A stretch of DNA of 64,000 nt, from sequence record PQ510734.1; one strand, given 5' to 3'. Positions 1,869-2,676 of this stretch are shown here, piece by piece. The translations under genes and the position numbers were made by a program. Source of the DNA: Escherichia phage A6-6. The notes beneath the pieces were generated by a model, which was not told where the DNA came from, did no database searches, and worked only from the letters and a program-made list of their open reading frames with translations. Numbering within the stretch: the first letter of the stretch is position 1; each line of letters opens with the position of its first letter.

Positions 1869-2186
1869 ATGAAAACCTATAAAGAATTTATTGCAGAATC
1901 TGCTGCAGGACAACGTGTAGAAGGTGGTTATATCTGGATTGAACAAGTTGAGCCGCCAAGTCGCACTTCTACAGGTAAATGGAAAATCACTGTTGATGGT
2001 CCTGGTGGTAAACGTAGGACTCTTAAAGAAATTAATGGGTACTATGAAGAAGCTCTTTCTGATGCGGGTACTTATATGATGCAAATCATGATTAAAAACC
2101 CAGAAAATCGTTTTGCGGCTAGAGTTTTCCGCCGTATTGGAAATAAGCTTTATGATGCATATTCTAAAAACTTCCCTAAAGAATAA
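1869..2186 (+). CDS. internal (head-packaged) protein with capsid targeting sequence
   Basis: N-terminus MKTYKEFIAE matches T4 IP capsid targeting sequence; sits downstream of e like ipIII/ipII; RBS AAAGGAAAC. Confidence 0.7.
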   Translation: MKTYKEFIAESAAGQRVEGGYIWIEQVEPPSRTSTGKWKITVDGPGGKRRTLKEINGYYEEALSDAGTYMMQIMIKNPENRFAARVFRRIGNKLYDAYSKNFPKE

Positions 2187-2202
2187 AAATTAAAGGAAAC
2201 AT

Positions 2203-2676
2203 ATGAAAACATATCAAGAATTTATTACTGAAGCAGCTATTAATTCTCAAATTATTGCTGAATCTTTTACTGATCTTTTGAAATTTAAAAAAGGTCAGAA
2301 AATCACTGCTGTATTGGATGATGGTACAGAAGTTGAGATGGATGTACAGGGATATAATTATGCAGTAGATGGAAAACTGTATAATAAATCTCACGCTAAA
2401 TTTGATTCATTTGACGACTTTGTTAATACAGTTGAAGATGAAAAAACTCGTCGATCCATTGCAACTGGTGATGCTAAGGTTCTTATGGCACATGGCCATG
2501 AACGCATTCGCGCTAAACAGAATAAAATGGGTGAAGATAATTTTGCATTAGTTGGTTATCAATCTGGTAAACAAACTTATGGCTATCAACGTACTGCTAC
2601 TATGTATAACAAAAATGGTAAAATTGCCTTTGTGAATAGTAAAGGTTCTATTCAGTACGTCAAATCATTCAAATAA
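2203..2676 (+). CDS. internal (head-packaged) protein with capsid targeting sequence
   Basis: N-terminus MKTYQEFITE; same RBS/leader as the preceding IP gene (duplicated cassette). Confidence 0.7.
   Translation: MKTYQEFITEAAINSQIIAESFTDLLKFKKGQKITAVLDDGTEVEMDVQGYNYAVDGKLYNKSHAKFDSFDDFVNTVEDEKTRRSIATGDAKVLMAHGHERIRAKQNKMGEDNFALVGYQSGKQTYGYQRTATMYNKNGKIAFVNSKGSIQYVKSFK

Follow-up and report, generated by a model that had tools for sequence, protein, structure and literature searches.

Ip10 and Ip4 internal protein cassettes at the e-to-vs.8 locus of a T4-like phage, with a candidate structured RNA at their right edge

Introduction

The internal proteins (IPs) of T-even phages have been described as varied defence proteins with nothing in common but a capsid-targeting sequence; around 1000 IP molecules are present in each T4 head, where their lysines contact the phosphates of the DNA (PMC3012670). 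Each of the T4 proteins Ip1, Ip2 and Ip3 blocks a different type IV restriction enzyme of the GmrSD family, without cross-protection (Silas et al. 2025, PMC12373910), the targets of Ip2 (IPII) and Ip3 (IPIII) being those of strains ECOR21 and ECOR17 respectively (PMC12373910). On strain ECOR17 IPIII is required, and a leaderless form of the protein also works from the cytoplasm (PMC9391042). Against other GmrSD variants active on T-even phages, ip4-10 gave no reproducible inhibition (Silas et al. 2025, PMC12373910); the enzyme family is very diverse, 15 groups of it having been sampled (PMC12373910). For the IP cassettes at the locus described here, the literature goes back to Repoila et al. 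1994, cited for 'at least 10' IPs in two loci (PMC12373910).

The closest arrangement by position is that of T4 itself, in which the order is e-ipIII-ipII-denV-vs.8. A protein of the same class is IPI* (Ip1), the GmrSD inhibitor for strain CT596, which is likewise leader-bearing, protease-trimmed and injected, and which is a trimmed form of 76 residues (PMC3012670). Outside the T-even phages, the Dar proteins of phage P1 (DarA, DarB and Hdf) are anti-restriction proteins that are also carried in the capsid and co-injected with the DNA (PMC12810830). The Dar proteins are large, follow another packaging route and lack the shared leader, and the likeness is one of analogy only. Here we describe the e-to-vs.8 interval of a T4-like phage, which holds two IP genes that differ from those of T4, and a conserved RNA-like element at its right edge.

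Results and Discussion

The locus and its flanks

The window, by which we mean the whole 64,000 nucleotide (64 kb) stretch of DNA that was analysed, comes from a T4-like phage of the genus Tequatrovirus. Two open reading frames of 105 aa and 157 aa lie directly after the lysozyme gene e on the plus strand, where the gene order is nudE (809-1249), e, the two reading frames themselves, a 140 nt gap, and then vs.8, vs.7 and vs.6 (Table 1). Two TATAAATA late-promoter motifs are found upstream of e, at 1252 and 1265. The region between e and the first of the two genes contains an early-promoter-like GTTTAC...TAGTAT and the ribosome-binding site AAAGGA; this promoter was read from the sequence only and was not called by a consensus scan, and a scan for promoters and terminators around the cassettes called nothing convincing. 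Positions 1200-3400 are 97.6% identical to Shigella phage SH7, and at least 80% of this region is covered in 296 deposited phage genomes.

The earlier note, made from the sequence alone, had placed the two genes at the hypervariable IP locus of T-even phages. The locus is one of two polymorphic IP loci in these phages, and the assignment is borne out both by position, the e-to-vs.8 interval being that occupied by ipIII and ipII in T4, and by a census of the region around e in 26 loci, consisting of the window, 22 T4-like IMG/VR contigs and three annotated phages, in which genes starting M(K/R)(T/S)(Y/F)x(E/D)F(I/L/V) were counted as cassettes. Between one and four leader-bearing genes were found in the interval per phage, with at least ten mutually unrelated families of mature domain, including IPIII-like, IPII-like, Ip10-like and Ip4 types.

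Table 1. Features of the cassette locus, in window coordinates
Feature	Coordinates	Strand	Evidence or remarks
Gene e, T4-type lysozyme	1286..1780	+	97% identity to T4 e; Pfam Phage_lysozyme; conserved left flank of the cassettes
Intergenic region from e to first cassette	1781..1868	+	Common to region upstream of T4 ipIII; within the 93%-identical T4 HSP 2-1908
Leader repeat copy 1	1851..1904	+	Ribosome-binding site and codons 1-12; direct repeat
ipA, Ip10-family internal protein gene, 105 aa	1869..2186	+	Cluster P0001 99% identity; SP18 Ip10 70%; phrog_3966 E 6e-34
Capsid-targeting sequence MKTYKEFIAE of ipA	codons 1-10, 1869-1898	+	Predicted prohead-protease site IAE↓S
Segment without T4 homology except second leader	1909..2675	+	blastn breakpoints 1908 and 2676; replaces T4 ipIII body, ipII and denV
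Leader repeat copy 2	2185..2238	+	Direct repeat; 95.6% to both T4 IP leaders over 45 nt
ipB, Ip4 internal protein gene, 157 aa	2203..2676	+	Pfam DUF7412 E 6e-96; phrog_3155 'internal virion protein'; K3 Ip4 99%
Capsid-targeting sequence MKTYQEFITE of ipB	2203-2232	+	Predicted site ITE↓A
Second family-conserved site IAE↓S after E20 of ipB (residues 11-20)	2233-2262	+	E20 invariant in 14 family members
Structured RNA-like element, ~106 nt	2694..2799	+	Right edge of cassette array; in 140 nt gap after Ip4 stop codon
P0 hairpin	2694-2699 with 2706-2711	+	Part of RNA-like element
P1 helix	2718-2722 with 2755 and 2757-2760	+	Bulged G2756 invariant
Nearly invariant core, 31 nt	2723-2754	+	Enclosed by P1
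3' hairpin	2785-2787 with 2795-2797	+	Part of RNA-like element
vs.8, 179 aa	2817..3356	+	98% identity to residues 41-219 of annotated T4 vs.8; phrog_1488; conserved right flank

A shared leader with predicted protease sites

The adjacent genes had been reported to share a nearly identical ribosome-binding site and leader, and these indeed form a 54 nt direct repeat, the copies of which are 83% identical. A 35 nt consensus, AAAGGAAACAYATGAAAACMTATMAAGAATTTATT, covering the ribosome-binding site and the first eight codons, has two exact matches in the 64 kb and none in 100 shuffles. The form of the leader originally quoted, AATTAAAGG, is exact in the second copy, but the first copy reads ATTTAAAGG. 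Over the 30 nt preceding the ATG of the first cassette, 29 positions match the same stretch before T4 ipIII.

At the protein level, both reading frames translate to the N-termini previously given, MKTYKEFIAE and MKTYQEFITE, i.e. MKTY(K/Q)EFI(A/T)E. These fit the IP consensus MKTYQEFIAE, and such a motif heads 60 genes in the 26 related loci. The prohead protease of T4, gp21, recognises the consensus (L/I)-x-E, which is found in both products at the sites predicted after residue 10, IAE↓S in that of 1869-2186 and ITE↓A in that of 2203-2676. Beyond the leader the two mature domains are mutually unrelated, as the earlier note had stated, with BLASTP between the two proteins aligning residues 1-17 only. 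The lengths of 105 aa and 157 aa that it gave for the mature domains are instead those of the full-length proteins; removal of the ten residue leader would give predicted products of 95 aa and 147 aa, the second being reduced to 137 aa if a further site at E20 is also cut.

The suggestion that the leader DNA is conserved beyond the needs of the protein was rejected: its four-fold degenerate codon (ACN) varies freely, whilst the two-fold degenerate codons follow AT-rich usage. Because the ACN codon varies in this manner, protein constraint and codon bias are all that is needed to explain the conservation of the leader DNA. It still supplies around 35-45 nt of near-identity for recombination.

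Both genes encode named internal proteins

Judged by its sequence matches, the 105 aa protein is the already named Ip10, and not an unknown variant. The cluster to which it is 99% identical, P0001, occurs on 60 contigs and matches the ip10 of phage PP01, the record of which annotates ip10 and ipIV at the exact position of the two genes; its ip10 is the same length and lies within the DNA match. Identity to the Ip10 of Shigella phage SP18 is 70% over 100% of the length, and in both phages the gene has the same position by e. Residue 5 of the leader is K in the window and Q in close relatives. The family is small, a search of 1.84 billion representatives with an Ip10 profile having added one credible further member. 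Four large repeat proteins (P0019-P0022, 596-4265 aa) were also considered as homologues, but were judged to be repeat-inflated chance matches, consisting of many weak repeated stretches. The predicted structure of Ip10, for which three sequences only were available, had a pLDDT of 50 and was left out of the fold searches as unreliable.

The 157 aa protein is, by the same kind of comparison, the already named Ip4, the same protein as that of phage K3 (UniProt Q38388). The two have the same leader and the same length, are 99% identical over their full extent with a TM score of 0.87, and show no material difference; K3 Ip4 was also the single matching entry when the predicted structure was compared with a viral structure library. 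The DUF7412 match scores 319 bits, relative to a cut-off of 27, and covers profile positions 1-157 of 158. Members of the Ip4 family are found in T4-like phages of Escherichia, Shigella, Salmonella, Serratia and Klebsiella. The structural model (pLDDT 76.7, pTM 0.72) consists of a beta-hairpin, three helices and a four-stranded sheet, for which no resemblance was found among solved structures; sequence searches of solved structures likewise returned nothing significant.

Around the invariant E20 of the Ip4 family lies the motif (I/L/M/V)-x-E↓(S/A), which suggests, from sequence conservation, a second cut by the prohead protease and a mature form of 137 aa. There is a parallel in IPI*, the 76 residues of which imply more trimming than the removal of a leader alone. 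Pfam and phrog searches found no enzyme domains in either Ip10 or Ip4, and both have the profile of IPs in general, being small, basic, non-enzymatic proteins of 95 aa and 137-147 aa when trimmed, with mature isoelectric points of 9.6 for Ip10 and 9.1-9.3 for Ip4.

Part of one or other gene body is present in 472 deposited phage genomes, and both occur together in 56; Ip4 itself is found in hundreds of sequenced T4-like phages. The cassettes add no new kind of system, and both genes are already named and common.

Relation to the ipIII-ipII-denV region of T4

The window is 93% identical to T4 DNA over positions 2-1908, the last of which falls in codon 13 of the first gene, at which point the blastn match ends. 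Homology resumes, at 96.6% identity, at position 2676, the last base of the ipB stop codon, which is aligned with the stop codon of T4 denV. The absence of denV that had been remarked upon was confirmed by a tblastn search of the whole 64 kb window with T4 DenV, the best match of which comprised 12 residues at an E value of 0.85.

Ip4 and Ip10 share with T4 IPII and IPIII their locus, leader and protease site, as well as a similar size and basic charge, and the T4 proteins are presumably packaged and injected as Ip4 and Ip10 would be. They differ in having unrelated mature domains, and in that GmrSD targets are established for Ip2 and Ip3. That neither mature domain is that of IPII or IPIII had been proposed earlier and is upheld by BLASTP, which aligns the first 12-14 residues only, barring a weak match between Ip4 and IPII; once stripped of their leaders, Ip4 and Ip10 gave no link to IPII or IPIII at E values below 1e-4. 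Straightforward orthology to these T4 proteins was the outcome that the earlier note had set beforehand as refuting its reading, and neither BLASTP nor profile comparison found it.

It could nevertheless be argued that the two genes are orthologues of ipIII and ipII that have diverged strongly, given that they have the same position and order and that the hhalign alignment of the Ip4 family with IPII extends to 77 columns. We regard this as very unlikely: the alignment is confident over the leader only, that of the Ip10 family with the T4 IPs spans just 13 residues, and the flanking DNA is 93-97% identical to T4 right up to sharp breakpoints. Furthermore, in related phages this locus holds genuine IPII-like and IPIII-like genes together with Ip10-like ones.

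Proposed role of Ip10 and Ip4

We consider there to be a high probability, chiefly by analogy with T4, that the two genes, one of the Ip10 family and the other Ip4, are IP cassettes of the T-even type at the e-to-vs.8 position, the products of which would be packaged, trimmed, injected and able to block a host defence. As in T4, both proteins would be made during infection and steered by the leader into the scaffolding core of the prohead, where gp21 would cut behind E10, with a probable second cut behind E20 in Ip4. The mature basic proteins would remain, in many copies, with the packaged DNA and be injected alongside it, and in the new host each may bind and block one specific early-acting defence, the likeliest target being a subtype within the GmrSD family of type IV restriction enzymes, which are directed at DNA containing glucosyl-hydroxymethylcytosine.

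The earlier note had named IPI* as an example of the anti-restriction proteins of this locus; its gene, however, sits in the other IP locus of T4, outside the window. The broader expectation stands, the products of ipII and ipIII at this locus in T4 being anti-restriction proteins (PMC12373910).

Two other readings of the role were weighed. The first is that Ip4 and Ip10 are injected inhibitors of defences other than GmrSD, such as nucleases or sensors acting at the entry of DNA, as might be expected from the failure of ip4-10 to affect the tested GmrSD variants reproducibly, and from folds that, being unrelated to each other or to any solved protein, do not tie them to one target class. Whilst this is a real possibility, we think it somewhat unlikely, since all three of the characterised IPs hit GmrSD enzymes, and the sampling of just 15 groups is small beside the great diversity of that family. 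The second is that the proteins are mainly structural fillers, basic parts of the scaffolding core that neutralise the charge of the DNA without having a specific host target. The isoelectric points of 9.1-9.6 for both mature proteins would suit such a function, as would the abundance of IPs in the T4 head (about 1000) and the contacts of their lysines with DNA phosphates (PMC3012670). Nevertheless, at least ten unrelated families, swapped freely and present at one to four per phage, are a poor fit to a fixed structural need and a good fit to an arms race, and all three T4 IPs have specific targets; hence the filler role appears improbable as the main one, although structural and anti-defence roles are not mutually exclusive. 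The most likely role, argued by analogy, is therefore that of injected, target-specific inhibitors of early host defence, with GmrSD subtypes the leading candidates.

Ip4 and Ip10 are worth pursuing in this respect because they are widespread and because all three of their characterised relatives are specific anti-restriction proteins. Identification of their targets would probably reveal more host defences and account for differences in host range among therapeutic T4-like phages.

Exchange of cassettes among relatives

The gene denV is found before, between or after the cassettes in the census, and is absent from six of the 26 loci, including those of the window, PP01 and SH7. It behaves as a movable cassette within the IP array (loci L001-L025 and L053; window 1780-2816). 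In phage teqhal it takes the form of a 421 nt insertion between e and ip10.

Contig L005 matches the teqhal array except for the loss of ip10, the sequence upstream of teqhal ip10 being fused to the Ip4 body. Comparison of L005 (5933-6053) with L002 (2520-2974) shows the contig to be a natural recombinant, and because the crossover falls inside the shared 35 nt leader, this example constitutes direct evidence that the conserved leader acts as the recombination site for the loss and exchange of cassettes. A model in which leader-mediated recombination exchanges IP cassettes was reportedly put forward by Repoila et al. in 1994.

A conserved RNA-like element downstream of Ip4

The gap between ipB and vs.8 contains an element with the features of a structured RNA (Table 1), the core of which has the nearly invariant motif ACCTGTAATAAGGTCGAGCCCAAG(Y)GCGGTAA. 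Positions 2720-2799 retain 75-82% identity even among distant T4-like phages, where identity of the vs.8 protein falls to around 40%. A coding explanation for this conservation was rejected: there is an in-frame stop in the window, the frame of vs.8 varies, close relatives differ by a 1 nt indel, and one phage has an insertion of 34 nt. As vs.8 lies in differing frames and indels break the reading, the element is not coding.

A BLAST search located the element in 1077 deposited phage genomes, almost all of which have a single copy, and a covariance model built from the element alignment detected one copy only in the window, at 78.9 bits. Its distribution extends beyond the T4-like phages, with the 5' half present at 88-93% identity in unrelated rV5-like phages, and pattern scans adding contigs of around 46 kb and 70 kb and one of 5.7 kb. 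When 185,579 representative genomes of bacteria and archaea were scanned for the exact pattern, none contained it, and a search of the E. coli genome was empty. There was also no match in Rfam 15 at an E value of 1 or below, and none to the core sequence in a text search of a library of papers.

The neighbours of the element vary. In three of the contigs surveyed (L012-L014), as well as at one further locus or more, it lies upstream of another IP cassette and not directly upstream of vs.8. At the four non-T4-like loci in which tRNA genes were found, a same-strand tRNA cluster lies around 250-750 nt from the element, and in the 5.7 kb contig (L094) a lysozyme gene is followed by the element and then by sequence read by eye as an intrinsic terminator.

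Evidence for base pairing comes from a gap-free alignment of 35 distinct sequences. Within P1, the pair formed by alignment columns 21/54 is AU in 22 sequences, UA in five, CG in four and UG in four, with none unpaired; 20/56 is CG in 25, GC in four, UA in four, AU in one and GU in one, again with none unpaired; 19/57 is CG in 28 and GC in six, with one unpaired; and 18/58 is GU in 11, AU in eight, UA in four and GC in one, with 11 unpaired. The covariation score of P1 was 0.615, whereas sliding the partner columns gave no more than 0.162, and none of 500 shuffles reached the observed score; this test is inflated by relatedness among the sequences. Similarly, cognate flanks paired at -4.8 kcal/mol and non-cognate flanks at -2.7 kcal/mol, none of 10,000 permutations being as good, a comparison that relatedness also inflates. 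The hairpin upstream of P1 has one compensatory change in its support, and single-sequence folding energies of the element were no better than those of shuffled sequences. The G-U pairs in the alignment favour an RNA of the plus strand, which is the sense strand of the neighbouring genes.

Two contigs carry tandem copies of the element around 115 nt apart, L087 at 568 and 681 of the reverse complement and L091 at 9029 and 9143. In the diverged second copy (GCCTGTAATAAGGCCAGTCCGCGACGGTAAGGGG) one change is compensatory for a possible inner hairpin, ACCU-loop-AGGU; hence the tandem copy hints that such a hairpin may form. Resemblances to the twister and pistol ribozymes and to segments of RNase P, which had been drawn by eye, were dropped, there being no support for them in Rfam.

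From the pattern of conservation and pairing we tentatively propose that the element belongs to an undescribed class of phage structured RNA, a proposal that we hold at close to an even chance. It could act in cis on processing, stability or translation, exist as a small RNA in its own right or serve as a decoy for a host factor; a regulatory, processing or decoy function could be linked to the variable accessory regions that virulent phages carry. If confirmed, it would constitute a new conserved non-coding element common to unrelated virulent phages.

The start of vs.8 and a distant leader-like reading frame

In T4, vs.8 is annotated as 219 aa (L004 4794-4913), the first 40 residues of which cross the RNA-like element (window 2706-2816). 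An in-frame stop breaks the equivalent extension in the window, PP01 and SH7. Because of this stop, and since vs.8 is in another frame relative to the element in several phages, the 179 aa start at 2817 is likely to be the true start of vs.8, and the 40 residue extension of the T4 annotation is probably erroneous.

A further leader-like sequence, MKTYKEFIKE, with an I-x-E site, begins a 54 aa reading frame on the plus strand at 46533-46697, directly upstream of the primase gene 61 (46700-47728) and far from the IP loci. The leader is followed by a low-complexity acidic tail, giving a mature isoelectric point of around 5. At least 80% of the 281 nt stretch containing this reading frame is covered in 469 T4-like genomes, in which it is annotated as hypothetical, and on the strength of its leader the product could be a further small packaged peptide.
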